Positions 4,080 through 27,310 of a stretch of DNA of 56,264 nucleotides are shown in pieces (position 1 is the stretch's first letter; each line of letters opens with the position of its first letter). The notes under the pieces were generated by a model that saw only the letters and a program-made list of their open reading frames with translations, was not told where the DNA came from and ran no database searches. A program made the position numbers and the translations under genes. The stretch lies in assembly GCA_947463235.1 (NCBI GenBank), contig CANHST010000001.1, positions 1-56,264 of the forward strand. The letters run 5' to 3'. Origin of the DNA: Acidimicrobiaceae bacterium (GTDB lineage: Bacteria; Actinomycetota; Acidimicrobiia; Acidimicrobiales; Ilumatobacteraceae).

Positions 4080-4083
4080 CAGG

Positions 4084-5754
4084 TCACTTCCCGCCGAAGA
4101 CCTTGACGAGCTCGACGACGCCCGGATCGAACAGCTTGAACATCAGCTGCGGCAGCACGCCGAAGACCACGATGGCGATCAACAGCGGCGTCCAGGCGAT
4201 CCATTCGAACTTGTTCACGTCGTGGAGCAGTTCGTGACCACCCTCGCCGTGAGCGTCGTCGCCATGGGCATCGGCGCCGTGCGCGTCGTGGCCGTGCGCG
4301 TCGTGGCCGTGGTCGCCATCGGCGCCGAGACCGGCGAACTCCGCAGTGGGGTTGCCGAACGCAGTGCGCTGGTAGAGCCACAGCAGGTAGCCGGCTGCCA
4401 GCACGGTGCCGAGTGCAGCGATGACGGTGAGCCAGCGGAACAGCGAGAGGCTCAGGCCGCCATACGGCAGACCCTCACCGTGCAGCGGGTTCCACGAGCT
4501 GAGAATGGCCGGGAACTCGCCCCAGAAACCAGCGAGGCCGGGAAGACCGAGCGACGCCATGGCGCACATACCGAGGATCCAGCCGAGCTTCGGCACCTGC
4601 TGCAGCAGACCGCTGAGGCGCTTGATCTCCAGCGTGTGGTATCGCTCCTTCACCGACCCGGCGATGAAGAAGAGCATGCCGGTGATGAGGCCGTGCGCCA
4701 CCATGCCGAACAGGGCCGCATTGATGCCCAGCGGGGTGAGCGTGGCGATGCCGAGCATCACGAAACCCATGTGGGCAACCGAAGAGAACGCAATGAGACG
4801 CTTCATGTCGGTCTGGGCCAAGCACCCCAGTGCGCCGTAGATGATGCCGATGACGGCGAGAATCCCGATGACCGGCGCCCACTTCGTGGCGGCCTGCGGC
4901 AGGAACGGGATGGCGATGCGCACGAAGCCATAGGTGCCGAGCTTCAGCAAAATGGCGGCCAGGATGACCGAGCCCTGCGTCGGCGCCTGCGTGTGGGCGT
5001 CGGGCAGCCAGGTGTGGAACGGGAACATCGGCACCTTCACGGCGAAGCCGATGAACATGCCGGCGAAGATCCAGATGGCCGTGTTCTTCGACACGTCGGC
5101 GCCGTTCTCGAGGAACCACTTGAAGCTGAAGTTGGCGGCCTCGGGGTCGGCGGCGTGGCTACGGGTGACGACGAACAGTGCGATGAACGACACGAGCATG
5201 AGCGCCGAACCGAACATCGTGTAGAGGAAGAACTTCAGCGATGCGTACTGGCGGTTCTCGCCACCCCACACACCGATCATGAAGTACATCGGCAGCAGCA
5301 CCACTTCGAAGAACACGAAGAACAGGATGAGGTCCTGCGCCACGAAGGTGCCCGCCATACCCGTCTGGAGCACCAGCATGAGGATGAAGAACGCCTTCGG
5401 GTTGCCGGGCGACGGCACGTGGTCCCAGGAGTAGATCATCACGAGCAGGGTGATGATCATCGAGAGCACATACAGCGGCAGGCTGATGCCATCGAGGCCG
5501 ATGGTGTACGTGGCCTTGATGGGCGTGATCCAGTTGTTCGTGGTGAAGAACTGGAGCGACCCAGCCTTGCCGTAGTCGAACTGGGTCATGGTGTAGATGC
5601 CCACCAGGAGCGTCGCCGCTGCGGTGAGGATGGCCACACCCTTCACCGTCGACTCGTCGCTCTTGGGGATGAACAGCATCACCAGGACACCAGCCAACGG
5701 CAAGAAGACACCGAGGCTGAGTAGCCACTGTTGGTTCTGAAGTACGTCGTGCAT
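4084..5754 (-). CDS. nuoM: NADH-quinone oxidoreductase subunit M, with C-terminal His/Asp-rich insert
   Basis: Start trimmed to ATG 5752-5754 (MHDVLQNQQWLLSLGVFLPLAG), 8 nt after the nuoL stop. Motif FHTWLPDAHTQAPTQGSVILA. The upstream track extension overlaps nuoL. Confidence 0.92.
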   Translation of the reverse strand: MHDVLQNQQWLLSLGVFLPLAGVLVMLFIPKSDESTVKGVAILTAAATLLVGIYTMTQFDYGKAGSLQFFTTNNWITPIKATYTIGLDGISLPLYVLSMIITLLVMIYSWDHVPSPGNPKAFFILMLVLQTGMAGTFVAQDLILFFVFFEVVLLPMYFMIGVWGGENRQYASLKFFLYTMFGSALMLVSFIALFVVTRSHAADPEAANFSFKWFLENGADVSKNTAIWIFAGMFIGFAVKVPMFPFHTWLPDAHTQAPTQGSVILAAILLKLGTYGFVRIAIPFLPQAATKWAPVIGILAVIGIIYGALGCLAQTDMKRLIAFSSVAHMGFVMLGIATLTPLGINAALFGMVAHGLITGMLFFIAGSVKERYHTLEIKRLSGLLQQVPKLGWILGMCAMASLGLPGLAGFWGEFPAILSSWNPLHGEGLPYGGLSLSLFRWLTVIAALGTVLAAGYLLWLYQRTAFGNPTAEFAGLGADGDHGHDAHGHDAHGADAHGDDAHGEGGHELLHDVNKFEWIAWTPLLIAIVVFGVLPQLMFKLFDPGVVELVKVFGGK

Positions 5755-5762
5755 GGATCCCT

Positions 5763-7985
5763 CTAGCTGTTGACGAGTACGAGTACGAGCGCACCGACTG
5801 CTGCGGCACCGAACAGCAGCGCTCCGTACATGCTGACCTTGCCTGATTGCACCGGTTGCAGCGCGCCACCGGCGCCGCGTGCGGTTGCACCACTTCCATT
5901 CACCACACCATCGACCACGCGTTGGTCGACGTTGCGGTACATCCACTCACCCGTGCGTCGGCCAGTGATGCCGACACCGTTCACCACGCCGTCGAGGACG
6001 TTCTGGTTGACCCAGTACGCCGCCTTGGCGATCGGATGAGCGATGGCCTTCACGATGACGCCCTCATAGAGCGCATCGAGGTAGTACTTGTTCACCAAGA
6101 ACTTGTGGCCGGCACCCAGCAGCGCGTTGCGCTCGGTGAGGCCCTTGAACGGCGACTTCTCGTCGTTGAAGAAGACCTTCTTGCTGAGGAACAGGCTGAC
6201 GGCGAAACCTGCGAGCACCAACACCACGCTGGGCAACGCATTCACCCATTCGAACGTCGGCGGCTCGGGAATGCCGCCTTCGCCGAGGGGCAGACCGATG
6301 GAGCTCTCGAGCCAGTGTTCGAACGAATGCCAGTGGAACGGTGCGGCATTCAGATAGCCGGACACCAACGCCAGGAAGCTGAGCAGGATGAGCGGCGCCG
6401 TGATCTGCCACGGCGAATCGTCGGGGGCGAACGGCAGCGGCTTGCCGTGGTTCAGCGGCGCATGGTGGTCGTCGTGCGCCGGGTGGGCGTGCGTGTCGTG
6501 ACCATCGATGTCGTGGTGCACTTCATCGGCGGCTTCGTCGTGGCTGTGGTCTTCGTGACCGTCCACGAAGTGCGCAGCACCGCCGCGGGCCTTGCCGAAG
6601 AACGTGAGGTAGGTGGCCCGGGTCATGTACGCAGTGGTCATGAACGCACCGATGAGACCGACGATCCAGAACACCGTGTAGTCGTTCGCATGGGCCGAGT
6701 CGATGATCTCGTCCTTGGAGAAGAAGCCGCTGAAGAACGGCACACCGCACAGGGCGGCCGTGCTGATCACCCAGGTGACGAACGTGACCGGCATCTTCTT
6801 GCGCAGGCCACCCATGTCGGTCTTCATGTCGAAGCTGTGGTGCGAGCCGGTGTGCGCAATGGAACCGGCGCAAAGGAACAAGCAGCACTTGAAGAATGCG
6901 TGCGTGAAGATGTGGAACACGGCGGGCATCCAGGCACCCACGCCGAGGCCCATCATCATGTAGCCCAACTGGCTCACCGTGGAGTACGCCAGCACCTTCT
7001 TGATGTCGTTCTGCACGAACGCCAGGCCGGCGGCGATCAGGATGGTGATGCCACCGATGACGGCGATGAAGTTGAAGTGGTGCCCGGCGACGTTGATGTC
7101 GAGGCCGATGTGGAACACCGGGTAGATACGGGCCACCAGGAACACACCGGCCACCACCATCGTGCTGGAGTGCAGCAGCGACGACACCGGCGTAGGGCCG
7201 GCCATTGCGTCGGGGAGCCAGGTGTGCAGCGGGAACTGACCGCTCTTGCCGATCGCTGCAATGAACAACGCGATCGCCGTCCACATGAGCATCGACTTGC
7301 TGTCGAACTCGCCGGCAGCAGCCATTGCATTGATGCCGTGCTCGCCGCCGATGTCGAGCGTGCCGAACACGGCCAACAGCATCGCAGTACCGACCAGCAA
7401 GCCCATATCGCCGGTGCGCACCGTGAAAAACGCCTTCAGGGCTGCACGAGCGTTGGCCTCTTCCTCCCACCAGTGACCGATGAGCATGAACGAGCAGAGG
7501 CCCATGATCTCCCAGCCGAGCACGAACTGCACCATGTTCGGTGCGAGCACCATGGTGAGCATGCCGGCGGAGAACAGCGTGAGGCTGGCGAAGAAGTGGG
7601 TGTAGCGACGATCGCCGCGCACGTACTCGGTGGAGTAGATCTGCACCAGCGTGCTGATGAAGGCCACGAGCACCAGTGCCATCACGGCGAGGCCGTCGAT
7701 GTGCTGGCCGATGGCAAACTTCAACGGGCCGCTGGACCACCAGGTGAGGGTCTTGTCGATGGCCTCTTCGCTGTGATGGGTCCACTGGGTCCATTGATAT
7801 GTGGTGCCGGCGGCGATGACGAACGAGGCGAACATCGCGGCGATGCCGATCTCGCTGCCACCTCGGGGCATCTTCTTACCGAAGAAGATGATGAGGAAGA
7901 ACGCAACGGCCGGGATGACCGGAATGAGCCACGCGTGCTCGAGGAACCAGCCCACTGCGTGCGTTGCCTCTGCTTCAGCGAACAT
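5763..7985 (-). CDS. nuoL: NADH-quinone oxidoreductase subunit L (long form, 740 aa, His/Asp-rich insert)
   Basis: Motifs LHTWLPDAMAGPTPVSSLLHSSTMV and antiporter-like TM repeats, followed by a C-terminal lateral-helix region. Sits between nuoK and nuoM. Confidence 0.93.
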   Translation of the reverse strand: MFAEAEATHAVGWFLEHAWLIPVIPAVAFFLIIFFGKKMPRGGSEIGIAAMFASFVIAAGTTYQWTQWTHHSEEAIDKTLTWWSSGPLKFAIGQHIDGLAVMALVLVAFISTLVQIYSTEYVRGDRRYTHFFASLTLFSAGMLTMVLAPNMVQFVLGWEIMGLCSFMLIGHWWEEEANARAALKAFFTVRTGDMGLLVGTAMLLAVFGTLDIGGEHGINAMAAAGEFDSKSMLMWTAIALFIAAIGKSGQFPLHTWLPDAMAGPTPVSSLLHSSTMVVAGVFLVARIYPVFHIGLDINVAGHHFNFIAVIGGITILIAAGLAFVQNDIKKVLAYSTVSQLGYMMMGLGVGAWMPAVFHIFTHAFFKCCLFLCAGSIAHTGSHHSFDMKTDMGGLRKKMPVTFVTWVISTAALCGVPFFSGFFSKDEIIDSAHANDYTVFWIVGLIGAFMTTAYMTRATYLTFFGKARGGAAHFVDGHEDHSHDEAADEVHHDIDGHDTHAHPAHDDHHAPLNHGKPLPFAPDDSPWQITAPLILLSFLALVSGYLNAAPFHWHSFEHWLESSIGLPLGEGGIPEPPTFEWVNALPSVVLVLAGFAVSLFLSKKVFFNDEKSPFKGLTERNALLGAGHKFLVNKYYLDALYEGVIVKAIAHPIAKAAYWVNQNVLDGVVNGVGITGRRTGEWMYRNVDQRVVDGVVNGSGATARGAGGALQPVQSGKVSMYGALLFGAAAVGALVLVLVNS

Positions 7986-7988
7986 GCG

Positions 7989-8288
7989 TCAGCCCTTCAT
8001 TTCCGACAGGTCGTCGAGCGAGATGTTCTTGCGGTTGCGGAAGATCAGCAGCACCATCGCAAGACCCACGCCCACCTCGGCGGCAGCAACCGCAATGATG
8101 AACAGAGCGAAGACGTTGCCGTCGCTGTTGCCCGTCATGGCGTCGAAGGCCAAGAGGTTGATGTTCACCGAGTTGAGGATCAACTCGATGCTGAGGAGCA
8201 CCATCACGGCGTTCTTGCGCGTGAGGACCCCGTAGACGCCCATGCAGAACAGCAGCGCGCCGAGAATGAGGAACTGGTTGAGCAACAT
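7989..8288 (-). CDS. nuoK: NADH-quinone oxidoreductase subunit K
   Basis: 99 aa starting at internal ATG 8286-8288: MLLNQFLILGALLFCMGVYGVLTRKN..AAAEVGVGLA. The rest of track ORF 7989..8981 overlaps nuoJ out of frame. Confidence 0.92.
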   Translation of the reverse strand: MLLNQFLILGALLFCMGVYGVLTRKNAVMVLLSIELILNSVNINLLAFDAMTGNSDGNVFALFIIAVAAAEVGVGLAMVLLIFRNRKNISLDDLSEMKG

Positions 8289-8305: not shown

Positions 8306-8833
8306 TCAGTCTTTCCGGGCCAGCACGATGGCGCCGATGACGGCGGCGAGCAGGACGAACGACAGCGCCCAGAAGGGCAGCAGATACGGCTTGAAGATCA
8401 GGTCGCTGATGGCTGCGGTGTCCTGCGGCTTGGCACCGTTGCCGGTGGTGGCGGCGATCTTGTCGTCGGAGAAGCCCTTCAACAGCACATAGGCCAGCAC
8501 CCCGAAGAGCAACAGCGCCACGGGAGCGGCGACCACTGCGTTCTTGTTGTTCACCTCGGCGTCCTTGCCGACCTGCGCACGGGTGAGCATCACACCGAAG
8601 AGGAACAGCACCATGACGGCGCCGATGTACACGAGCACCTGGGTGACGGCAACGAACTCGGCGGACAGCAGCACGTAGTTCGCTGCAGCACCAGCCATCA
8701 CGACCACGAGCGACAGCGCTGCGTGCACGACGTTGCGAGCGGCGATGACACCAACGCCAGCAATGATCATCGTCAGGGCGATGATGGCGAACCCGACGTT
8801 CTGGGCTACCTGGATGTCGGAGGCGAGCACCAT
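8306..8833 (-). CDS. nuoJ: NADH-quinone oxidoreductase subunit J
   Basis: 175 aa from ATG 8831-8833, which forms an ATGA overlap with the nuoI stop. Sequence [43 protein letters not shown] is typical of NuoJ. Confidence 0.88.
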   Translation of the reverse strand: MVLASDIQVAQNVGFAIIALTMIIAGVGVIAARNVVHAALSLVVVMAGAAANYVLLSAEFVAVTQVLVYIGAVMVLFLFGVMLTRAQVGKDAEVNNKNAVVAAPVALLLFGVLAYVLLKGFSDDKIAATTGNGAKPQDTAAISDLIFKPYLLPFWALSFVLLAAVIGAIVLARKD

Positions 8834-9354
8834 CACTTGCCCTTCTTCTTCTCGGCGCCAGCCTCGAGCGCAGGCGCCTCGGGCACGGTTTCCATCCACT
8901 CGCCCAACTTGGTCTTGTCGTGGAGCAGATCGGCGATCTTGGGCTCGGAGTACTCGTACTCGGGGCTCCAGAACAGCGCATCGAACGGGCAGACCTCCAC
9001 GCAGATGCCGCAGTACATGCACAGCGCGTAATCGATGTCGAAACGGTCGAGCTTGTTCACCTTGCGAGGCGCGCCACCCGCGCGGCGCGGCGGCGCAAGT
9101 TCCTTGTGGCCCTCAATGTAGATGCACCAGTCGGGGCAGCTACGGGCACAGAGCATGCACGAGGTGCAGTTGTCTTCGCGCAGAGCGATCACACCGCGCG
9201 CACGCAGCGGCGGGGTCTCCTTCTCATGCGGGTACTGCACCGTGGCCGAGCCGCCGCCGAGCTTCCTCGGCTTCAGCGTCTGGGCCATCGTGTTCAGAGT
9301 GACGCCGAGGCCCTTGAGCAGACCGGGCACCTGCGGTTTCTTCGGAGCTGCCAT
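8833..9354 (-). CDS. nuoI: NADH-quinone oxidoreductase subunit I (2x[4Fe-4S])
   Basis: 173 aa with two CxxCxxCxxxCP motifs: [12 protein letters not shown] and [12 protein letters not shown]. Confidence 0.93.
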
Positions 9355-10406
9355 CAGAACGCAACCTTCAGGATCGCAGTGAGCATGATGTTGAGGAGCG
9401 ACACCGGGATGAGCACCTTCCAGGCGAAGCGTTGCAGCTGATCCTCACGGAAGCGGGGGTAGCTGAACCGCACCCACATGATGATGCCCGAGAGCACCAT
9501 CATCTTCGTGATCATGATGATCGGGCCGGCGACGTTCATCCAGTTGTCGACGCTGCCGGTGGCGGCATCCCAGCCGAACCAGCTGAACGGCACACCCCAG
9601 CCACCAAGGAACAACACGCTGGCGATCAGGGAGAACACACCGGCGGTGGCGAACTCGGCAATGAAGAAGATGAGGAAGCGGAAGCCGGAGTATTCCGTCA
9701 TGTAGCCAGACACGAGTTCGGATTCTGCGATCGGCATGTCGAACGGCGTCTGGGTGAGTTCGGCCTGCACGGCGATCATGAAGATCGCGAAGCCGATGAA
9801 CTGCGTGAGGATGTAGGGGTTGCCCAAGCCATCCCAGCCGAAGATGCTGTCGCTGTTCTGCTTCACCACGATCTGCTGGAGATTCATGGTGCCCGCCTGG
9901 ATGACCACGCCGAGCACGGCGAGCACCATCGGCAGTTCGTAGGCGATGAGCTGACCTGCAGCGCGGAGGCCACCGAGCAGCGAGTACTTGTTGGCGGAAC
10001 TCCAGCCGGCCATGAGGATGCCGAGCGTGCTGATGCTGCTGACGGCGAGCATGTAGAAGACGCCGGCATCGAAGTTCGTGAAGTAGGCGTCGGGGCCGAA
10101 GGGCACCACGGCCACGAGCAAGAAGGTGCTCACCAGCACCACCAGCGGCGCCATGCGGTAGATGCGCTTGTCGGCACCGTCGGGGGCGAGGTCTTCCTTC
10201 TGCAGCCACTTGCCCACTTCGGCGAAGAGCTGCATGGAGCCATAGGGGCCGGCTTCCATCGGGCCGAGGCGGCTCTGCATGAAGCTCATCATCTTGAACA
10301 GGAACAGGTACACGATGGTGCCCGCAGGCAACAGCACCGCCACCGTGCCACCGAGCACGCGCAACAGCGACTGTGCCCAGTAGGGAAGATCAACAGCGAG
10401 CATCAC
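9354..10406 (-). CDS. nuoH: NADH-quinone oxidoreductase subunit H
   Basis: 350-aa polytopic protein in NuoH position, with [27 protein letters not shown]. Confidence 0.93.
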
Positions 10407-11575
10407 CGGTCAATGTCTCCCAGGATGAAGTACAACGACGCCAGGATGGAGATGACGTCGGGGACGTACACGCCACGCAGCACCCACGGCACGATGGAGA
10501 TGTTGTTGAAGCTGGCCGAGCGGATCTTCACCCGGAACGGGCCAAGGTCGCCCTTGCTCACCACGTAGTAACCCATCTCGCCAAGCGGGTTCTCGGTGCT
10601 CACCCATGCTTCGCCTTCGGGCACCTTGATGATGCGCGGCACCTTGGCCATGATCGGGCCGCTGGGCATGGTGTCGAGCAGTTGGTCCACGATGAGCGTG
10701 GACTCACGGGTCTCCTGCAGGCGAATCCAGCAACGGGCGAAGCTGTCGCCGTCGGGGTGGGTCCAGACCTTCCAGTCGACCTTGTCGTAGGCGAGCGGCA
10801 GGCTCTGGTCGCGACGAAGGTCCCAGTCCACGCCGCTGGCGCGCAGGTTGGCGCCGCTGAGGCCGTACTGCTTGGCCACTTCAGCGGGAATCACGCCGAT
10901 GCCGCGCAGGCGGCTCTGGAAGATCTCGTTGCCGAACAGCAGGTCTTCCATCTCGGTGCAGAAGTTGCGGAGCTTCTTCATCACCTGCTTGGTCTCGGCG
11001 ATCCAGCCGGCCGGCAGATCGTCCTTGAGGCCGCCGATGCGGTCGAAGTTCGGGTGGAACCGGCCGCCCGTGGCTCCCTCGATGAGGTTCAGCACGTGCT
11101 CGCGATCTCGGAAGGCCATGAACACCGGGGTGACGGCACCGAGCTGCACGCCCAGGTCGCCGAGGAACAGACCCACGTTGGCGATGCGGCTGAGCTCGAA
11201 CAGGATGGTGCGGATCCATTGCGCACGCGGCGGCGCTTCGATCTCCATCAGCTTCTCGGCGGCCAGGATGAACGGCACTTCATTGGCGAAGCTGCCCAGC
11301 CAGTCGATGCGGTTCACCAGTGCGGTGACCTGCGGGAAGGTGCGCACCTCGGTGAGCTTCTCGTAGCCGCGATGCATGTAGCCGGCGCTGGGCTCGGCCC
11401 ACACCACCTGCTCGCCGTCGAGGCGAACGATGATGCGCAGCGTGCCGTGCGTGGCCGGGTGCTGGGGGCCGATGTTGAGGGTCATGCCCTCGGTCTCGAG
11501 CTCCACGTTCAGACGAGCATCGGCGGCCTGTGCCGCGATGTAGCTGAGCTTCTGGCGATCGGCGAGATCGGTCAC
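10403..11575 (-). CDS. nuoD: NADH-quinone oxidoreductase subunit D
   Basis: Contains NIGPQHPATHGTLRIIV and HRGYEKL motifs. Start placed at GTG 11573-11575, a GTGA overlap with the nuoC stop. The ATG at 11638 would overlap nuoC by 67 nt. Confidence 0.9.
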   Translation of the reverse strand: MTDLADRQKLSYIAAQAADARLNVELETEGMTLNIGPQHPATHGTLRIIVRLDGEQVVWAEPSAGYMHRGYEKLTEVRTFPQVTALVNRIDWLGSFANEVPFILAAEKLMEIEAPPRAQWIRTILFELSRIANVGLFLGDLGVQLGAVTPVFMAFRDREHVLNLIEGATGGRFHPNFDRIGGLKDDLPAGWIAETKQVMKKLRNFCTEMEDLLFGNEIFQSRLRGIGVIPAEVAKQYGLSGANLRASGVDWDLRRDQSLPLAYDKVDWKVWTHPDGDSFARCWIRLQETRESTLIVDQLLDTMPSGPIMAKVPRIIKVPEGEAWVSTENPLGEMGYYVVSKGDLGPFRVKIRSASFNNISIVPWVLRGVYVPDVISILASLYFILGDIDR

Positions 11576-19449: not shown

Positions 19450-20172
19450 ATGAGCACCCCGCCTCCCCTGATTGCCCTGTGCGCCCGAACCCTCACCTTC
19501 TCCGACGAAGGCAAGCGCGACGCGTTCAGCAGCAGCCAGCCATACAGCCGTGCGGTGGCACGCGCCGGTGGGGTGCCGGTGCTCGTGCCGCCGATCAAGG
19601 AACTGGCGCAGAACGCCCTCACCGTGCTGCAGCATTTCGATGGGGTGCTGCTGCCGGGGGGCGGCGACGTCGACCCGCGTCGTTACGGCCAGGAACCCGA
19701 CGACGACACGCTGTACGGCATCGTGCCGGTGCACGACGACCTCGACATCGCCGTCTGCCTGGCCGCCATCGAACTCGACCTTCCCATGCTGGCGCTGTGC
19801 CGGGGCATGCAGGTGCTGAACGTGGCACTGGGCGGCACGCTGGTGCAGGACATCGGCAACAGCGACCACTGGATGCGTGAGCACACCGTGCAACTTCTCG
19901 ACGGCAGCAAGTTGGCGATGGCCACCGGCACCACGGACCTGGAGCACTGTCACTCGGTGCACCACCAGGGCGTGGGCGATCTCGCATCGCCGCTCGTACC
20001 CGTCGGATGGGCGCCCGATGGCCAACTCGAGGCTGTGGAGCTCCCAACCGCCAGTTGGGTGGTCGGCGCACAGTGGCACCCGGAAGACACCGCTCCGCAC
20101 AAGCCGCAACAACAGGCCATCTACGACGAACTCGTCCGACGCGCCGCAGCCCGCGCGGCATCGACTGCCTAG
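19450..20172 (+). CDS. gamma-glutamyl-amine hydrolase family (peptidase C26, PuuD-like), copy 1
   Basis: Motifs LPGGGDVDPRRYG, LALCRGMQVLNVALGGTL (Cys nucleophile) and AQWHPE. Start at ATG 19450 is uncertain. Confidence 0.8.
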   Translation: MSTPPPLIALCARTLTFSDEGKRDAFSSSQPYSRAVARAGGVPVLVPPIKELAQNALTVLQHFDGVLLPGGGDVDPRRYGQEPDDDTLYGIVPVHDDLDIAVCLAAIELDLPMLALCRGMQVLNVALGGTLVQDIGNSDHWMREHTVQLLDGSKLAMATGTTDLEHCHSVHHQGVGDLASPLVPVGWAPDGQLEAVELPTASWVVGAQWHPEDTAPHKPQQQAIYDELVRRAAARAASTA

Positions 20173-20871: not shown

Positions 20872-20874
20872 CCC

Positions 20875-21046
20875 CCCGCCGCCGCCGCCACAGCCGCCGC
20901 CGCCGACTCCCGGGCCACCCAGAGCCACCGCCGCCACCTCCCGCGCCACCCAGAGCCGCCGCCGCCACCTCCCGGGCCACCGACTCCAGGGCCACCGACT
21001 GCCACCCAGAGCCGCCACCACCACCCAGAGCCACCGACTCCAGGTC
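20875..21046. repeat. C-rich mosaic tandem repeat (top strand)
   Basis: ccacccagagcc occurs at 20915, 20946, 21002 and 21021. ccaccgactccagg occurs at 20977 and 21031, with a partial copy at 20991. A 31-nt unit is repeated at 20915/20946. The region fills the gap between the puuD-like stop and the left inverted repeat. Confidence 0.8.
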
Positions 21047-21135
21047 GGGTCCGATTTGCGCCATTCCTGGCACGTTCCGGACCCACGGGTCCGAGATGAG
21101 CCACCAGTGGCACATTGCGTACCCGTGGGTCCGAA
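21047..21135. repeat. left inverted-repeat arm with two GGACCC-N2-GGGTCC-type palindromes
   Basis: Sequence: gggtccgatttgcgccattcctggcacgttccGGACCCACGGGTCCgagatgagccaccagtggcacattgcgTACCCGTGGGTCCgaa. Confidence 0.8.
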
Positions 21136-21222
21136 GTACGCCACTTACGAAGACGATGAGACCACCGATATGGTCCACCGAACGACTCCCCCGTCACCGT
21201 TCCCCGACTTGGGAGGTTCGAC

Positions 21223-22146
21223 ATGGCGAGTTGGCAACACGCCGTCGACGAGTGGCTACGCACTCATCACGGCATCATCGGCCCGAGCGGCCTCGATCAG
21301 AGCGGCATGCCGCTGCGCACAGCCCACCGCTGGGCCGACGACGGGCGCTTTGAGCGACTCATGCCTGGTGTCTTCAAGAGCAGACAGTGGCCCGACTCAC
21401 TCGAGCAGCGGTGCGCTGCGGCATGCGCGCGAAACGAACGAGCCGTCATCAGCTTCACCACCGGAGTTCGGCTCTGGCATCTGCGCCGCGCTCGCGTGAA
21501 CGGTGTCCACGTTCTGATCGACCACGGCACCACGCCCGAGATTCCGGGCATCATCGTCCATCGCTGCCGACGGATCGATTCAGTCGATGTGGTCGAACGA
21601 ACCGACGGGATCCGACTCGCCAGCCCGCCGAGGGCGCTCTTCGACGCCGCCGACATGCTGGGGTTCGACGCGACACGTTCAGCGCTGGAACAGATTCTGA
21701 ACGAGCGCCTCTGCACCATCGACACGGTCGTCGACACGGTGGCTCGGCTCTACCACCCGAATCGTCCAGGTGCCCGCACGATGCTCGACGTGGTCGCTTC
21801 GCGGCCAAAGTGGCAGCGGGCCTTGCAGTCAGATCTGGAGCTGAAGGTGCTGCAGGAGATCGAACGGCAGCAACTCCCGGCGCCCGTGCCCCAGTGTCTG
21901 CTCACGCTCCCCGACGGCACACCTATCCACCTCGACTTCGGCTGGCCCGATTGGAAGGTAGGTCTGGAGGTCGACGATCCGGCATGGCATGCCGGCGCAG
22001 CCGAGCAGCAACGCGACCACCGACGCGACCGCAAGGCCACCCTGCTCGGCTGGCTGGTTCTGCGCGTTGCTCGCCTCGACGTGGAAGGTCCGCTGCGCGA
22101 GGCAATCGGCGATGTCGCCGAGGTCATTCGACAACGCGCATCGTGA
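21223..22146 (+). CDS. DUF559 (Vsr/MutH-like endonuclease fold) protein with AbiEi-like N-terminal wHTH domain
   Basis: 307 aa. ATG is preceded by GGGAGG at 6 nt. The N-terminus (LRTHHGIIGPSGLDQSGMPLRTAHRWADDGRFERLMPGVF) matches the AbiEi_4-type domain. The C-terminus (HLDFGWPDWKVGLEVDDPAWHAG..RDRKATLLGWLVLRV) matches the DUF559 core common in actinobacteria. Both calls are recognition from memory, not a search. Confidence 0.75.
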   Translation: MASWQHAVDEWLRTHHGIIGPSGLDQSGMPLRTAHRWADDGRFERLMPGVFKSRQWPDSLEQRCAAACARNERAVISFTTGVRLWHLRRARVNGVHVLIDHGTTPEIPGIIVHRCRRIDSVDVVERTDGIRLASPPRALFDAADMLGFDATRSALEQILNERLCTIDTVVDTVARLYHPNRPGARTMLDVVASRPKWQRALQSDLELKVLQEIERQQLPAPVPQCLLTLPDGTPIHLDFGWPDWKVGLEVDDPAWHAGAAEQQRDHRRDRKATLLGWLVLRVARLDVEGPLREAIGDVAEVIRQRAS

Positions 22147-22151
22147 CTGAA

Positions 22152-22240
22152 TTCGGACCCACGGGTCCGCAGTGAGTCATTGTTGGCGCATTGCGGACCC
22201 GTGGGTCCGGAACGCGCCAACAATGGCGCGAAACGGACCC
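22152..22240. repeat. right inverted-repeat arm with two GGACCC-N2-GGGTCC palindromes and a 48-nt compound hairpin
   Basis: Sequence: ttcGGACCCACGGGTCCgcagtgagtcattgttggcgcattgcGGACCCGTGGGTCCggaacgcgccaacaatggcgcgaaacggaccc. The perfect 12-bp outer stem cattgttggcgc / gcgccaacaatg (22178-22189 and 22214-22225) encloses the second palindrome. Confidence 0.8.
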
Positions 22241-22245
22241 AACCC

Positions 22246-22357
22246 GGCGCGGCGCGGTGCTGGCGCGGCGAGGCGCTGGCGCGGCGCGGTGCTCGCGCGG
22301 CGCGGTGCTGGCGCGGCGAAGCGCTGGCGAGGCACTGGCGAGGCACGGCGAGGTGCT
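22246..22357. repeat. G-rich 16-nt tandem repeat (5 units) decaying into 10-11-nt units
   Basis: ggcgcggcgcggtgct-type units at 22246, 22262, 22278, 22294 and 22310. These are followed by ggcgaggcact, ggcgaggcac and ggcgaggtgct. The array lies between the right inverted repeat and the nuoN-2 stop. Confidence 0.85.
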
Positions 22358-22380
22358 GGGCCTGACCCGGGGGAGGCGGG

Positions 22381-23886
22381 TTAGGGGGCGAGGTTGATGA
22401 GCCAGCCGGGGAAGAACCCGACGAACAGCGTGAACGCCACCGAGAGGGTGATGGCCACCGTGAGGTACGCCGGCAAGCGCACTTCCTCGCGCTGGTCGTC
22501 GCCGGCTTCGGGCTCGGCGATCCACATTGAGATCATGATCCGCAGGTACAAGAACGCTGCGATCACTGCGGCCACCATCGCCACGACGGCGACGGAGTAG
22601 CTCTTGGCTTCCACAGCGGCACGGATGACGCCGAACTTGGCCACGAAACCGCTCGTAAGCGGAACACCCGCCTGCGCCAGCAGCAGGATGGTCATGCCGA
22701 AGGCCAGCATCGGCCGACTGCGGCCAAGGCCACGGAAGGCAGCCAGGTCGGTGGCGTTGTCGCCGGTACGGCTGACCGCAGTGACGATGCCGAAGGTACC
22801 CATCACGAGCACGGTGTAAATGAGCGTGTACAGCAACACCGACGAACGACCATCGTTGCTGGGGCCGCCGGCAGCGTGCGCCGCAGCCTCCACGCCCACG
22901 AGCATGAAACCGGCGTGGCTGATGCTGGAGAACGCCAACATGCGCTTCACGTTGGTCTGCACGACCGCCATGATCGAGCCGCCGAAGACGGTGAGGATGG
23001 CGAGCAGCCAGAGAACCGGACGGTAATCCCGGCTGAAGTTGGGCAGACCCTGCAGCAGCACTCGCAGCATCGCCGCGAACGCCGCGGCCTTCGCTGCCGA
23101 CGCCATGAACGCCGTCACCGGGGTGGGCGAACCTTCATACACGTCGGGAGTCCAGAAGTGGAACGGCACCGCCGCCACCTTGAACGCCAGACCCACCACG
23201 AGCAGGGCCACACCGGCCAAGAGGATCGCGTCGTCGCTGCCCTTCGTGGGCACAGTGGTGGCGAGTGCACGGAGCATCGCGTCGAAGTTCGTGCTGCCCG
23301 TACCGCCATAGATCAGGGCGATGCCGTAGAGGAAGATGGCCGATGAGAAGCCGCCGAGCACGAAGTACTTGAGGCCGGCTTCCTGGCTGCGCAGACGCTT
23401 GCGGTGGCTCGCAGCGAGCACATACAGCGTGATCGACAGGATCTCGAGACCGAGGAACAACACCACGAGATCGTTCGACGCCGCCATCACGATGCCGCCG
23501 ATGGCAGCCAGCATGAATAGGGCGTAGACCTCAGGACCTTCGAGGCCCTCGCGGCGCAGGTAGTCGTCGCTCAGCAGCGACGCCAGGAACACCGCGAGAC
23601 CGATGGTGAGCGTGACCCAGATGGTCATCTTGTCGAAGTGGACCGCGCCACCCACGAGGGTGGAAGGTCCGTCGACGTCGATGCGATGCCACAGCGGGAA
23701 GCACAGACCGATGGTGGCCAGCGCAACGACTGCGGAGAACGACGAATAGCAACGCTTCGGCCACTGCGGGGTGAGCGCAGCAACAACCAACAACACCATG
23801 GCACCGCCCAGCAGCACCAGCAGTGGGCTGAGGTCGAACCAGGCGATGCTGGGTCCTTTCAGCGTCTCGGCGGCGAGGACGCCCAT
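22381..23886 (-). CDS. nuoN: NADH-quinone oxidoreductase subunit N (14-subunit operon)
   Basis: 501-aa antiporter-like membrane protein with FHFWTPDVYEGSPTPVTAF. Last gene of the string. Confidence 0.93.
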   Translation of the reverse strand: MGVLAAETLKGPSIAWFDLSPLLVLLGGAMVLLVVAALTPQWPKRCYSSFSAVVALATIGLCFPLWHRIDVDGPSTLVGGAVHFDKMTIWVTLTIGLAVFLASLLSDDYLRREGLEGPEVYALFMLAAIGGIVMAASNDLVVLFLGLEILSITLYVLAASHRKRLRSQEAGLKYFVLGGFSSAIFLYGIALIYGGTGSTNFDAMLRALATTVPTKGSDDAILLAGVALLVVGLAFKVAAVPFHFWTPDVYEGSPTPVTAFMASAAKAAAFAAMLRVLLQGLPNFSRDYRPVLWLLAILTVFGGSIMAVVQTNVKRMLAFSSISHAGFMLVGVEAAAHAAGGPSNDGRSSVLLYTLIYTVLVMGTFGIVTAVSRTGDNATDLAAFRGLGRSRPMLAFGMTILLLAQAGVPLTSGFVAKFGVIRAAVEAKSYSVAVVAMVAAVIAAFLYLRIMISMWIAEPEAGDDQREEVRLPAYLTVAITLSVAFTLFVGFFPGWLINLAP

Positions 23887-25406
23887 CAGCCTTCTCCCTT
23901 TTCAACGACCGGCACCTGCCAGGACGAGTGCTGCGAGACGTGCTCGAGCAACTTGTCGACCGACGGCTCGATGCGATCGAGCATCGGCTTGGGGTACACA
24001 CCGGCGAACACGATGATGGCAATGAAGGGCAGCAGCAACATGCCCTCCTTCCAGCGGAGCTCCCGGAAGCTCTTGTTGTCGTCGTCGGGCTCGCCGTGGA
24101 AGACACGCTGATAGGCCCAGAGCAGATACAGCGCAGCGAGGATCACACCGACGGCCGCCACCACCACCCACCAGCGGGCGGTGGCGAAGGAACCGATCAG
24201 CACGAGGAACTCGCCGACGAAACCGTTCAGTCCGGGCACGCCGATGCTCGAGAGCATCACGATCATGAAGGCAGCAGCGAACACCGGCGCCACCTTCTGC
24301 AGGCCCTTGAGCTTGGCGATCTCACGAGTGTGACGCCGTTCGTAGATCATGCCCACGAGAAGGAACAACGCACCGGTGCTGATGCCGTGGTTGATGTTCT
24401 GCATCACGCCACCGGTGATGGCCTGCGACGTGAGAGCGAACGTGCCGAGCACGATGAATCCGAGGTGCGCCACCGAGGAGTACGCGACCAAACGCTTGAG
24501 GTCGGTCTGCATCGTTGCGGCGATGGCCCCCCAGAGGATGCCGATGGTGGCGAGCGTGAGGAACACCGGACGGGCCCACACTGCGGCCTCGGGAAACAGA
24601 TACACGCCGAAGCGGAGCAGACCGTAGGTGCCGAGCTTCAGCAGCACACCGGCGAGGATGACCGAGCCACCCGTGGGCGCCTGGGTATGCGCATCGGGCA
24701 ACCACGTGTGCAGCGGGAACAAGGGAACCTTCACGGCGAAGGCGATGGCGAAGGCAAAGAACAACCATCGGCCGGTGCCCGCAGCGAATGAACCATTCTC
24801 GGCAATCTTGATGAGGTCGAACGTGACCGCACCGTTGTCGGCCTTGGCGATGATGGCCGTCGCGATGATGCCGACGAGCATGAACGCCGAACCGACCATC
24901 GTGAAGAGGAAGAACTTGGTGGCCGCGTAGACCCGATCGTCGTAGCCCCAGCCCCCGATGAGGAAGTACATCGGCACGAGGACGATCTCGAAGAACACGA
25001 AGAACAGGAACAGGTCGAGACTGATGAAGCTGCCCATCACGCCCGCCTCGAGCAAGAGCATCCACGACAGGTAGCGCTTGTGATCGTGATGCGGGTCGAC
25101 GCCAGCGATGACCAATGGGAACAGGATGCCGGTGAGCACCACCAGGAAGATGGAGATGCCATCCACGCCGAGGTGCCACGAGATACCCCACTCCTTGATC
25201 CAGGAGTGCTGGCTGACGAACTGGAACCCACTGTCGGCCTTCTTGAAGGCGAACAACGTCCAGAGTGCCATGCCGCCGGTGAGCACGCTCGTGAGCAGCG
25301 CGACGACCTTCACCAGGTCGGGCTGTCGGTTGGAAATGAGCGCGACCACCAGCGAACCGATGGCCGGCACCAAGACCAGCAGCGTGAGAATGGGGAAGTC
25401 GATCAC
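23886..25406 (-). CDS. nuoM: NADH-quinone oxidoreductase subunit M
   Basis: 506 aa with LHTWLPDAHTQAPTGGSVILAG. 1-nt overlap with nuoN. Confidence 0.93.
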   Translation of the reverse strand: MIDFPILTLLVLVPAIGSLVVALISNRQPDLVKVVALLTSVLTGGMALWTLFAFKKADSGFQFVSQHSWIKEWGISWHLGVDGISIFLVVLTGILFPLVIAGVDPHHDHKRYLSWMLLLEAGVMGSFISLDLFLFFVFFEIVLVPMYFLIGGWGYDDRVYAATKFFLFTMVGSAFMLVGIIATAIIAKADNGAVTFDLIKIAENGSFAAGTGRWLFFAFAIAFAVKVPLFPLHTWLPDAHTQAPTGGSVILAGVLLKLGTYGLLRFGVYLFPEAAVWARPVFLTLATIGILWGAIAATMQTDLKRLVAYSSVAHLGFIVLGTFALTSQAITGGVMQNINHGISTGALFLLVGMIYERRHTREIAKLKGLQKVAPVFAAAFMIVMLSSIGVPGLNGFVGEFLVLIGSFATARWWVVVAAVGVILAALYLLWAYQRVFHGEPDDDNKSFRELRWKEGMLLLPFIAIIVFAGVYPKPMLDRIEPSVDKLLEHVSQHSSWQVPVVEKGEG

Positions 25407-27310
25407 AGGATTCCTCGCACGATGACGAACCAGGCGAGGAGGAGCACGACGCCCACCCCCACCGCTGCGGCGTAGTTACGCACGTTGCCGGTCTGCACTT
25501 TTCGGGCTTCGCCAGCCGTGCCCTGCACCAAGTGCGCCGTACCGTTCACTGCACCATCGATGATGTGCGAATCGGCCCAGGTGACGCCCTCGAAAGCCTT
25601 GCGGCCCGGGCCACCCATGAAGTTGCTGACCGCACGGTCGTAACCCCAGGCATCGGCGAGGATCTTGGGCTCCACCGGCTTGAGCTTCTTGAAGTAGTAC
25701 ACCGCAAACGCCACACCGATGCCGATGAGGCCCATCGCGATGGCCATCAACGCCAGCGGCAACTTGGCGGTGTCGGAGTGGTGCAGACCGACCACCGGCT
25801 CGAGCCATTGCGTCAGCTTCTCGGTGGACTCGCTGAACGGCAGGTTGATGAACCCGCCGGCGAACGACAGCACTGCGAGCACCACGAGCGGCAGCACCAT
25901 CATCCAGGGGCTTTCGTGGGGGTCATGGCCTTCGGCGTGAAGATCTCCGTGCGCACCGTGCTCTTCATGCGCGTCGTGCCAACGAGCCTCGCCGTAGAAC
26001 ACCATGATCACCTGGCGGGTCATGTAGAAGGCGGTGAGCAGCGCCGTGACGAGACCCACCACCCAGAGAATGGGGCTCTTGTCGTAGGCGGCCAACAGGA
26101 TGTCGTCCTTGCTCCAGAAACCCGAGAACGGCGGCACACCGGCGATGGCCAACCAGCCGACGATGAACGTGCCGAAGGTGAGCGGCATGAACTTGCGCAG
26201 CGCTCCCATGCGACGCATGTCTTGCTCGTGATGCATGCCGTGAATCACCGAGCCGCTGCCGAGGAACAGCAGTGCCTTGAAGAAGGCGTGGGTGACCATG
26301 TGGAAGATCGCTGCGGTATACGCACCGGACCCGACCGCGAGGAACATGAAGCCGAGCTGGCTGACCGTGGAGTACGCCAGCACCTTCTTGATGTCGTTCT
26401 GCGACACCGCCACCGTGGCGGCATAGAGCGCCGTGGCAGCACCGACGATCGCGATGATCGTGGGCGCATACGACGATGCCACGTTCAGCACCGGGCTGAT
26501 GCGGCACATCAGGTACACGCCGGCCGTCACCATGGTGGCTGCGTGGATGAGCGCCGACACCGGGGTGGGGCCTTCCATGGCGTCGGGCAACCAAAGGTAC
26601 AGCGGCAACTGCGCGCTCTTGCCGCATGCACCGACGAAGGCGAAGAGGGCGATGGCCGTGGCTGTGGTGGCCGACAGCGACCCCGCCGCCTCATTGATGT
26701 GCAGATAGTCGAGCGAACCCACGGCCCAGAAGGCGAAGAACATCGCCATCATGAATCCCCAGTCGCCAACTCGGTTGGTGACGAACGCCTTCTTGCCAGC
26801 GGTGGCAGCGCTGTCCTTCTCGTGCCAGAAGCTGATGAGGAAGTAGGAGCAGGTGCCCACGCCCTCCCAACCGAGGAACGTGACGAGCATGTTCGAGCCC
26901 AGCACGAGCATGAGCATGCTGAACGCGAACAGGTTCAGATAGAGGAAGAACTTGCTGAAGCGACTGTCGCCATGCATGTAGCCGACCGCATAGAGATGGA
27001 TCAGCGCACCGATACCTGTGACGAACAGGCACATGGTGATGCTGAGCGGATCGGCCAGGAATGCGAGGTCGATGTGCAGGCCACCGACGGCGACCCACGA
27101 GAACAGCGTGTGCACCTGTTCGGCACGGGCCTCGGGTGACAGCGACTGCAGGTCGAGGAACACGCCAACGCTGACCACAAAGGACAGCGCCACCATCGCA
27201 GCGGCGAAGTAGCCCGCCACAGGGTCGCCGAGCTTGCGCCCGAACAGCAGGATCACCAGGAACCCGAGCAACGGGAACGCGGGGATCAACCAGACGACGT
27301 CGAGCATCAC
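25403..27310 (-). CDS. nuoL: NADH-quinone oxidoreductase subunit L
   Basis: 635 aa with LYLWLPDAMEGPTPVSALIHAATMV and a HDPHESP motif before the C-terminal lateral-helix region. Confidence 0.93.
   Translation of the reverse strand: MMLDVVWLIPAFPLLGFLVILLFGRKLGDPVAGYFAAAMVALSFVVSVGVFLDLQSLSPEARAEQVHTLFSWVAVGGLHIDLAFLADPLSITMCLFVTGIGALIHLYAVGYMHGDSRFSKFFLYLNLFAFSMLMLVLGSNMLVTFLGWEGVGTCSYFLISFWHEKDSAATAGKKAFVTNRVGDWGFMMAMFFAFWAVGSLDYLHINEAAGSLSATTATAIALFAFVGACGKSAQLPLYLWLPDAMEGPTPVSALIHAATMVTAGVYLMCRISPVLNVASSYAPTIIAIVGAATALYAATVAVSQNDIKKVLAYSTVSQLGFMFLAVGSGAYTAAIFHMVTHAFFKALLFLGSGSVIHGMHHEQDMRRMGALRKFMPLTFGTFIVGWLAIAGVPPFSGFWSKDDILLAAYDKSPILWVVGLVTALLTAFYMTRQVIMVFYGEARWHDAHEEHGAHGDLHAEGHDPHESPWMMVLPLVVLAVLSFAGGFINLPFSESTEKLTQWLEPVVGLHHSDTAKLPLALMAIAMGLIGIGVAFAVYYFKKLKPVEPKILADAWGYDRAVSNFMGGPGRKAFEGVTWADSHIIDGAVNGTAHLVQGTAGEARKVQTGNVRNYAAAVGVGVVLLLAWFVIVRGIL

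Follow-up and report, generated by a model that had tools for sequence, protein, structure and literature searches.

A 56,264-nucleotide stretch of DNA from an Acidimicrobiaceae bacterium (placed in Ilumatobacteraceae, Acidimicrobiia; contig CANHST010000001.1; hereafter, the window) contains a discrete unit at positions 21040–22247, in which a single gene coding for an AbiEi-type module fused to a Vsr/DUF559-type nuclease is enclosed by two structured repeat arrays, or arms, in inverted orientation. The reading that we favour, holding it with confidence and doubt in about equal measure, is that this unit is a self-contained, autoregulated and insulated AbiEi-nuclease cassette whose operator-like arrays double as its ends. 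Gained, lost and swapped in one block among related freshwater and soil bacteria, the cassette appears to be a selfish or mobile gene unit of a sort not described before.

Inverted arrays enclose a single gene

The preliminary description of this DNA, which was made from the letters alone, had reported that the reverse complement of 22152–22240 matches 21047–21135 at 75 of 89 positions without gaps, and we reproduced this alignment exactly. A repeat finder extended the inverted pair to 21040–21144 and 22143–22247 (105 nt, 81% complementary). Local alignment of the left side with the reverse complement of the right side gave a score of 56, compared with 10.9 ± 1.6 and a maximum of 15.5 for shuffled sequences. 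In direct orientation the arms match less well (57 of 89 positions ungapped; 79% over 66 nt), and they match at all in this orientation because the units that make up the arms are themselves palindromic.

Allowing at most one mismatch, the palindrome GGACCCNNGGGTCC occurs four times in the window, every time within an arm; shuffled windows contained 0.26 occurrences on average, and none of 100 reached four. One perfect copy and one mismatched copy (GTACCC-GT-GGGTCC) lie in the left arm, and two perfect copies lie in the right arm. The hairpin unit GGGTCCG-N24-CGGACCC occurs three times in the window, again only in the arms. Both arms fold more stably than their shuffled counterparts (z = −4.0 for the left arm and z = −8.35 for the right arm, which reaches −84.3 kcal/mol). 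The window had no matches in Rfam, and the arms gave only sub-threshold matches to microRNA hairpin models. As the preliminary description had stated, only one plausible coding sequence lies between the arms (Table 1).

The gene encodes an AbiEi-like protein with a fused nuclease

The encoded protein had been described as an AbiEi-like winged helix–turn–helix (wHTH) domain joined to a DUF559 nuclease domain. This call was right, and matches to the whole AbiEi profile and to known folds sharpen it. The wHTH spans approximately residues 1–58, the AbiEi C-terminal domain continues to approximately residue 200, and the nuclease domain occupies approximately residues 221–290. Pfam AbiEi_4 was matched at 25.3 bits (cut-off of 25), and the AbiEi models of PADLOC matched residues 16–174 (E = 3.9e-17; profile of 184 positions). 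For the nuclease domain, the Pfam gathering scores were not reached (14.4 versus 20.6 bits for DUF559 and 17.8 versus 38.2 bits for MTES_1575); a precomputed match to PF18741 is present in many homologues. A sequence profile search of the Protein Data Bank (PDB) and a search of NCBIfam gave no matches for the protein.

An AlphaFold2 model built from 39 homologues had a mean predicted local distance difference test score of 88.5. When this model was compared with the PDB by Foldseek, the first approximately 200 residues matched the AbiEi antitoxin of Streptococcus agalactiae (6y8q; E = 6.8e-7, template modelling (TM) score normalized to the target of 0.64). The last approximately 100 residues matched the homing endonuclease I-Bth0305I (3r3p; target TM score of 0.69–0.79), Vsr (1cw0) and NGO0050 (3hrl), each with a probability of at least 0.99. 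Across 39 sequences of 51–97% identity, D238, E249, D251 and H256 are invariant and K271 is nearly invariant, and the ratio of nonsynonymous to synonymous substitution rates (dN/dS) was 0.04–0.13 in nine pairs. Because the catalytic residues are invariant and dN/dS is low, the nuclease is intact and constrained. The wHTH is the most divergent domain (mean identity of 47% versus 62%). Strong purifying selection in vertically inherited copies suggests that the gene may be useful or addictive to its host, and a defence-like or toxin–antitoxin-like role would fit such selection.

No partner gene for AbiEii (a DUF1814 nucleotidyltransferase) was found: the gene is alone between the arms, and its neighbours are a Peptidase_C26 gene and nuoN. 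Nor did the protein contain a transposase of a known class (DDE, HUH, serine, tyrosine or DEDD), the AbiEi and Vsr/DUF559 domains being the only ones found in it. Among 1.84 billion representative proteins, the family comprises 366 clusters at E ≤ 1e-30 and 8,458 at E ≤ 1e-10. A protein search started from the copy in Ilumatobacter nonamiensis gave matches confined to the same group of organisms.

The arms are companions of the gene family

We then collected 79 loci encoding relatives of the protein (33–86% identity) from species-representative genomes; L-numbers denote such loci or contigs, and the comparative data come from metagenome-assembled genomes (MAGs) and metagenome contigs. At each locus, the 400 nt upstream of the gene were aligned to the reverse complement of the 400 nt downstream. 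The score was at least 20 in 42 loci, compared with approximately 10 for shuffled sequences, and this held for homologues with as little as 35% identity. Direct inspection of a low-scoring clade revealed one or two GGGCGCG-N25-CGCGCCC units on each side. Of 66 testable Acidimicrobiia loci, 55 had matches to a generic pattern of the unit beside the gene, on one side or both, again down to 35% protein identity. The density of this pattern was 3.41 per kb within the flanks (600 nt) but 0.10 per kb in the remaining DNA (1.1 Mb); in the six loci inspected, the matches away from the flanks were chance-like and unrelated to the arms. Each locus's own arms, searched by BLAST against their own 20 kb (1.18 Mb in total), had almost no other copies. 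Given this enrichment in the flanks and near-absence elsewhere, we conclude that the arms are specific companions of the gene family, not generic repeats.

These results answer two points raised in the preliminary description, namely whether arms flank DUF559 relatives in general, which they do throughout the family, and whether they are instead generic repeats scattered over the genome. The latter would mean that repetitive extragenic palindromic (REP) or terminator elements simply lie beside an unrelated gene. The arms do form very stable hairpins between convergent genes, and assemblies break at them. However, the motif is found only at the cassette gene within 56 kb (four occurrences), the searches with own arms came back nearly empty, the arms are present with the gene at different loci and differ according to its clade, and empty sites, described below, are free of arms. 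We therefore regard generic repeats as a most implausible explanation, and it is the only one of the four rival readings considered here that is clearly contradicted.

The palindromic arms break short-read assemblies, and many metagenome contigs that bear a relative are only 1.0–1.6 kb long; for this reason, cassettes are probably under-represented in MAGs. In the isolate I. nonamiensis YM16-303 (L076), the gene stands alone on a contig of 1,138 bp that is bounded by perfect 29-bp inverted repeats (3–31 and 1110–1138).

Individual loci depart from the standard layout. In L046, the right arm is missing (10913–10975) and nuoN ends approximately 60 bp past the stop codon of the nuclease gene; the left arm keeps two units. 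In L047 and L049, arm copies are displaced from the gene. Approximately 1.1 kb of extra DNA (approximately 8735–9900) separates the left arm of L047 from the cassette promoter, and contains an open reading frame (ORF) that, read by eye only, resembles a DDE transposase of the insertion sequence type (motif ...CWQIDATKW...). L081 has a solo copy of its arm at 19814–19854 (93% over 41 nt), 9 kb downstream of the cassette and just past the stop codon of another gene, with no nuclease gene beside it.

The two arms of a locus change together

Across the family, the conserved entity in the arms is a unit of approximately 40 bp made of two inverted half-sites of approximately 17 nt each, with one to four units per arm. 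Consecutive units are separated by a 2-bp gap in some lineages, which creates 14-bp boxes, and by 13–17 nt in others; single long hairpins occur in the 35%-identity clade. The core of the unit also differs by lineage: most loci have GGGCGCG, a few have GGGTGC, the window and L005 share GGGTCCG, and L026, L028, L030 and L034 have GGGCGG. The GGACCC arms (window and L005) and CCGCCC arms (L026, L028, L030 and L034) track protein clades, and arm type follows protein clade even when copies at other loci are included.

Within a locus, the mean score between the left and right arms was 31–39 at every level of divergence. By contrast, orthologous arms of different loci resembled each other at chance level once the distance between cassette proteins exceeded 0.4. 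These alignments indicate that the two arms of a locus evolve in concert.

Presence, absence and exchange of the cassette

In approximately 45 loci, the gene lies between the second of two Peptidase_C26 (puuD-like) genes and a convergent nuoN gene. The preliminary description had raised the possibility of empty sites at this junction, and we found them by scanning metagenome contigs with the puuD-like protein. In these loci (L100–L103, L105, L106, L110, L116, L119–L121, L128 and L129), the two stop codons are 35–170 bp apart, and neither the gene nor the arms are present. Some empty loci are basal in the nuoN tree, and others (L100 and the L101 group) are nested among occupied loci. The empty sites have no obvious target sequence in common.

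Among many comparisons, empty sites gave two marginal matches to arms (L101 with L048 and L102 with L033). In L101, the empty spacer (1166–1262) includes ...CTCGGGCGCGGC..., in which 21 of 25 positions agree with the beginning of a unit from the right arm of L048, in the sister clade. Such remnants are a weak hint of a footprint left by secondary loss. The same junction holds an ORF of approximately 230 amino acids on the opposite strand in L097 (4676–5452) and approximately 2.4 kb of other DNA in L118 (4682–7109), and so may be a general variable spot. One idea that we rejected was that the ends of the element supply TGACCC stop codons to its neighbours; the genes end identically at empty sites.

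Distances between cassette proteins and between nuoN sequences are correlated (Pearson 0.82), with three clear exceptions, and we take this correlation to mean that inheritance is mostly vertical. The window and L011 are separated by a nuoN distance of 0.024 and a cassette-protein distance of 0.387, and L005 and L086/L087 by 0.040 and 0.378, respectively; for the window and L005, the corresponding values are 0.178 and 0.137. In BLASTN comparisons, the window and L011 are 92.5% identical up to 20881 and 92.8% identical from 22339 onwards, and identity in the flanks is 86–95% right up to both edges of the cassette. Between these edges, the gene is 67.7% identical at the DNA level, the protein alleles are 61% identical, and the arms are of different types and cannot be aligned. 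The comparison of L005 with L087 has equally sharp edges. On both sides, the swap edges lie within approximately 50 bp of the neighbouring stop codons. We found no L005-like tract, as would mark co-conversion from the carrier of a related allele, in the flanks of the window or L011.

Copies at unrelated loci share DNA homology with syntenic copies only from outer arm end to outer arm end. For example, L012 (9827–11036) and L092 (4707–5886) are 70% identical from arm to arm, and the same is true of L034 with L028 and of L032 with L022. L012 and L060 belong to one MAG. Among the 79 loci kept, two copies of the cassette were seen in six MAGs and one in the others. In L010, the cassette is inverted relative to both neighbours. 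The nuclease gene of L069, L082, L061, L080 and L063 is represented only by split or truncated tblastn matches, which suggests occasional pseudogene decay.

One possible explanation for these polymorphisms is an ordinary resident gene with elaborate autoregulation, acting through both arrays, for example by looping or by blocking incoming RNA polymerase. The arms would then have no role in mobility, and absence, allele differences and extra copies would result from deletion, duplication and homologous recombination at a variable intergenic spot. Copies at unrelated loci argue against this explanation, as they carry both arms and lose homology at the outer arm ends. So do the empty sites, which lack arms (one marginal remnant apart), the swapped alleles, which bring their own arms and have edges approximately 50 bp from the neighbouring stop codons, and the preservation of likeness between arms over their full length, not merely at short core sites. 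Autoregulation through inverted repeats is nevertheless established for the AbiEi family, and the left array abuts the promoter. Vertical inheritance and low copy number, a dN/dS of about 0.1, the lack of a target-site duplication and the other content of the junction in L097 and L118, which makes it a variable spot anyway, also agree with a resident gene. On balance, we consider this explanation rather unlikely.

Several of our results weigh against the favoured reading of a cassette whose arrays double as its ends. Ordinary homologous recombination in a recombining population could also yield allele swaps with sharp edges. The strong purifying selection in vertical lineages would be expected less of a purely selfish gene than of one that is useful or addictive. 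One or two copies were seen per genome and most inheritance is vertical, with one allele found in 24 contigs in always the same context, and no relatives were found in plasmid, phage and IMG/VR collections. In the sole inverted case, L010, one of the junctions contains an NN scaffold gap, and misassembly could account for the inversion; we gave this single observation little weight. Direct matches beside the arm ends averaged 4.4 nt, compared with 4.7 nt in mismatched controls, giving no sign of a target-site duplication. Finally, published AbiEi operators lie upstream only, and a downstream copy has no precedent as a regulatory device.

Some of these results also bear on the preliminary description. 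It had called the protein family highly multicopy, which does not describe the present genomes, with one or two copies mostly inherited vertically at one site, and the target-site duplications that it had suggested looking for were undetectable beside the arm ends. Looking for direct repeats outside the arms yielded mostly the palindromic arms. In L032, a 30-bp direct duplication of the 3′ end of an upstream ORF of 417 amino acids (6743–6772 and 8039–8068) flanks a non-syntenic copy of the cassette; the duplicated segment lies 47 nt beyond the terminus on the left and 17 nt beyond that on the right. No other case of this kind was found.

The same low copy number and undetectable target-site duplication count against an autonomous transposable element of a new catalytic class. 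This would be an element in which the arms are multi-site terminal inverted repeats and the wHTH-nuclease is the transposase, pairing and excising the ends, with insertion occurring without a staggered cut. Its anatomy resembles that of an insertion sequence: 1.2 kb with one ORF, an N-terminal HTH, a C-terminal catalytic domain and imperfect terminal inverted repeats, the left of which has a promoter at its inner edge, and with translation that is throttled. The terminal repeats delimit the unit, copies at different loci are homologous from arm to arm, six MAGs have two copies, the orientation is opposite in L010 and there is a solo arm in L081. By contrast, no multicopy genomes were seen, no derivatives resembling miniature inverted-repeat transposable elements (MITEs) were found in 1.1 Mb of locus DNA, and the cassette has resided for long at one site across many species. 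We know of no PD-(D/E)xK nuclease that carries out strand transfer; TnsA of Tn7 performs cleavage only and needs TnsB. We judge such an element improbable. It would be, though we doubt it, the first autonomous prokaryotic mobile element with a fusion of an AbiEi-type wHTH and a Vsr-like PD-(D/E)xK nuclease as its only protein, reinserted by host end-joining or recombination without target duplication. Were this true of the thousands of AbiEi-DUF559 relatives as well, they would make up a new class of elements that transpose or excise themselves.

A free-standing homing endonuclease gene is another way in which one intergenic site could come to be occupied across many species, with empty sites and allele replacement. 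The Vsr-like nuclease would cut cassette-free or rival alleles near the puuD-like/nuoN junction, and the gene would be copied in by break repair. The nuclease domain matches I-Bth0305I, and the 14-bp boxes, 40 bp apart, recall the geometry of the site of that enzyme. However, the flanking genes have no co-conversion tract, the empty sites have no conserved target sequence and copies also exist at unrelated loci. Homing leaves the flanking arms unexplained, and the strong purifying selection in fixed lineages differs from the usual cycle of gain, decay and loss. These data make homing quite improbable. The preliminary description had proposed a mobile or homing unit. That the arms and gene form one discrete unit stands; both homing and transposition are conjectural readings, and the flanking genes bear no co-conversion tract.

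A putative promoter and a leader that may limit translation

A putative promoter begins directly at the inner edge of the left arm: the weak −35-like element (21145–21150) abuts the last half-site, and the −10 element is preceded by a G at 21167, giving the GnTAnnnT type. In nearly all loci, the motif (C)GATAnGGT is found at the same spacing from the start codon, and it fits the GnTAnnnT −10 element of actinobacterial SigA promoters. A generic sigma-70 scan detected no promoter, so the call derives from conservation of this motif. In L018 and L027, a −35-like TTGGAA or TTGAAG takes the place of the next half-site.

Downstream of the putative promoter, the leader carries a CUUCCCC stretch approximately 16 nt after the start of the (C)GATAnGGT motif, which is conserved in nearly all loci. 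In the window and the equivalent leaders of L005–L083, an anti-Shine–Dalgarno (anti-SD) sequence near the predicted transcript start is positioned to form a hairpin with the Shine–Dalgarno (SD) sequence. RNAalifold detected no structure in 42 leaders, whose variable loops were misaligned by MAFFT, and pairing was instead scored from the fold of each sequence. In 61 of 64 distinct related leaders, the minimum free energy fold joined at least four of the five SD core bases to the 5′ C-rich stretch. Compensatory changes were found in the flanking pairs (GGCUUCC/GGAAGCC, GACCUCCC/GGGAGGUC and GGCUCCCC/GGGGAGCC). The hairpin had no matching Rfam family. Given the conserved −10 motif and a leader that pairs with the SD sequence, the gene probably carries a promoter of its own, together with a device for restricting translation.

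Across loci, the right arm starts at a median of 19 nt past the stop codon. We also considered an antisense promoter mirrored at the right arm and rejected it, as inspection by eye of the last 60 nt of the gene found no −10-like motif.

A model for the cassette

In the mechanism that we propose for the favoured cassette reading, the protein would bind the 40-bp inverted-repeat units on both sides of its own gene. We infer this from its homology to AbiEi, the operator-like layout of the arms, the array adjacent to the promoter and the joint evolution of the arms and wHTH. Because the promoter begins where the left array ends on its inner side, protein bound to that array would be expected to shut it off. 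The leader hairpin would hide the ribosome-binding site and further limit translation, and the stable arm hairpins, together with C-rich tails outside them, could shield the gene from transcription by its two convergent neighbours. Such layered control of expression fits a product that is harmful when over-made.

The arrays would also act as the ends of the unit, as indicated by its presence or absence, the swapping of alleles with their own arms, the possible flip in L010 and the arm-limited homology at other loci. The nuclease, held at the arms, may make breaks there, and host recombination or end-joining may turn these breaks into loss, exchange, inversion or rare relocation of the unit, a process distinct from classical transposition. 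Three observations suggest that cutting or recombination takes place at the arms: relocated copies are homologous from arm to arm, empty sites are clean and allele swaps have sharp edges. How the unit moves is the least certain step of this proposal.

Relation to known systems

The closest parallels to the regulatory part of the model are in AbiE type IV toxin–antitoxin systems. AbiEi binds two 23-bp inverted repeats located at its own promoter, which it thereby represses; Rv2827c of Mycobacterium tuberculosis likewise binds and represses its own promoter, where two such inverted-repeat pairs lie in tandem, 4 bp apart (PMC7319586). The N-terminal two thirds of the cassette protein is homologous to AbiEi by profile and fold. 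The left arm, with tandem inverted-repeat units ending at the −35 element, is compatible with the operators of both, and its binding is predicted from this layout. Unlike AbiE systems, the cassette has no AbiEii gene and instead has a Vsr/DUF559 nuclease fused in the place of the partner. Its array is duplicated in inverted orientation downstream, and the whole unit shows presence/absence polymorphism and allele exchange.

The nuclease domain has the catalytic fold of EDxHD or Vsr-like enzymes, as represented by I-Bth0305I and Vsr (3r3p and 1cw0), and E-x-D-x4-H is invariant in the cassette family. I-Bth0305I acts as a homodimer on a site with a 14-bp pseudopalindromic core and has a footprint of approximately 60 bp (PMC3239194). 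Similar to EDxHD homing endonucleases, the cassette has presence/absence polymorphism at a fixed site. It differs from them in that its gene is not in an intron or intein, flanking arrays are present, the N-terminal module is another one and co-conversion is not seen.

Restriction–modification units flanked by imperfect long inverted repeats or by a long target duplication have been described, and their mechanism is also unknown (Furuta, Abe and Kobayashi 2010, PMC2853133). As in these units, a nuclease gene lies within unit-specific imperfect inverted repeats, and there are empty sites and allelic substitution; the 30-bp duplication in L032 recalls a long target duplication accompanying insertion. 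The cassette, however, has neither a methyltransferase nor an 8-bp target duplication, and its repeats are structured arrays that are conserved throughout the family and plausibly bound by the encoded protein.

Mobile elements provide further comparisons. The cassette resembles insertion sequences in size, in the imperfect terminal repeats around one ORF that has an HTH at its N terminus, in the placing of a promoter at the inner edge of the left repeat and in the sequestration of the ribosome-binding site. It departs from them in its catalytic domain, which falls outside known transposase classes, in its lack of a target-site duplication, in its one or two copies and in its long residence at a single site. 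REP-associated tyrosine transposases (RAYTs; REPtrons) are single-copy, vertically inherited genes of the nuclease type flanked by inverted hairpin repeats. Unlike RAYT/REP and IS200/IS605 elements, the cassette has no HUH/Y1 domain and its repeats are not dispersed. A likeness to IS200/IS605 or REP elements, as suggested in the preliminary description, is thus not borne out, there being neither an HUH transposase nor dispersed copies. The hairpins had likewise been thought to be recognized as DNA structures; the arms are better read as AbiEi-type operator arrays of tandem inverted-repeat pairs beside a promoter. An integron cassette of the attC type seems unlikely, as the nearby gene maps contain no integrase and the arms are arrays of units, not single attC-like sites.

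A literature search, whose coverage was incomplete and leaves novelty unproven, found no paper describing AbiEi-DUF559 fusions bracketed by repeat arrays. Fusions of AbiEi and DUF559 domains form a very large family of unknown function, for which the cassette supplies a concrete, testable anatomy. If the protein binds and cuts the arrays, the cassette would exemplify a new means of maintenance or movement for a nuclease gene, one connecting regulators of the toxin–antitoxin type with homing-type nucleases and with ends like those of transposons. Should the role of the arrays be regulatory only, it would still be unusual for operators to enclose their own gene. The cassette would become a new category only if the protein mobilizes the unit.

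Features in and around the cassette

The coordinates of the cassette and its surroundings are listed in Table 1.

Table 1 Positions of the cassette features and adjoining sequences in the window
Feature	Position	Strand	Description
Left tail	20872–21039	+	C-rich, G-poor tandem repeats, periods 31, 19 and 15
Whole variable segment	20882–22338	.	Entire stretch separating the neighbouring genes; exchanged as one block in L011
Left arm	21040–21144	.	Approximately 2.5 tandem 40-bp units; identified from inverted and internal repeats, pattern matches and fold
Left arm units	21047–21084, 21087–21124		First unit GGGTCCG-N24-CGGACCC; half unit at 21127–21144
Left arm 14-bp boxes	21079–21092, 21119–21132		Palindromic junctions
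Putative promoter	21145–21174	+	Weak −35-like TTACGA (21145–21150), 18-nt spacer, −10 TATGGT (21169–21174)
5′ leader hairpin	21179–21220	+	Anti-SD ACUCCCCC (21185–21192) predicted to pair with SD GGGAGG (21211–21216); ATG at 21223
Coding sequence	21223–22146	+	307 amino acids; AbiEi-type module fused to a Vsr/DUF559-type PD-(D/E)xK nuclease
Right arm	22143–22247	.	Same array as the left arm, inverted, from the stop codon on
Right arm units	22163–22200, 22203–22240
Right arm 14-bp boxes	22155–22168, 22195–22208
Right tail	22246–22359	+	G-rich 16-nt tandem repeat, 7.1 copies; C-rich on the strand of convergent nuoN

The tandem repeats with skewed composition outside the arms are a feature absent from the preliminary description. 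The left tail runs from the stop codon of the upstream Peptidase_C26 (puuD-like) gene to the left arm and falls within the segment that is replaced in the near-identical genome L011. It contains 97 C and 38 G in 168 nt, with a GC skew of −0.34 to −0.47. On the right side, 22248–22380 contains 71 G and 40 C, with a skew of +0.24 to +0.40. The tails are C-rich when read inwards at loci in general (mean skew of +0.33 on the left and +0.22 on the right, compared with an absolute skew of 0.10 in controls). Possible roles for the tails are Rho-type termination or insulation with respect to the convergent neighbours; alternatively, they may be filler prone to slippage.

The two upstream Peptidase_C26 genes are tandem paralogues with 48% identity. 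The window also contains two sets of genes for antiporter-like subunits of NADH dehydrogenase (nuoL/M/N paralogues), at 2610–7823 and 22381–27100, in which the nuoN copies are 37% identical and the nuoM copies 44% identical; one nuo operon ends before the amine-catabolism genes and the cassette, and the other starts after them.

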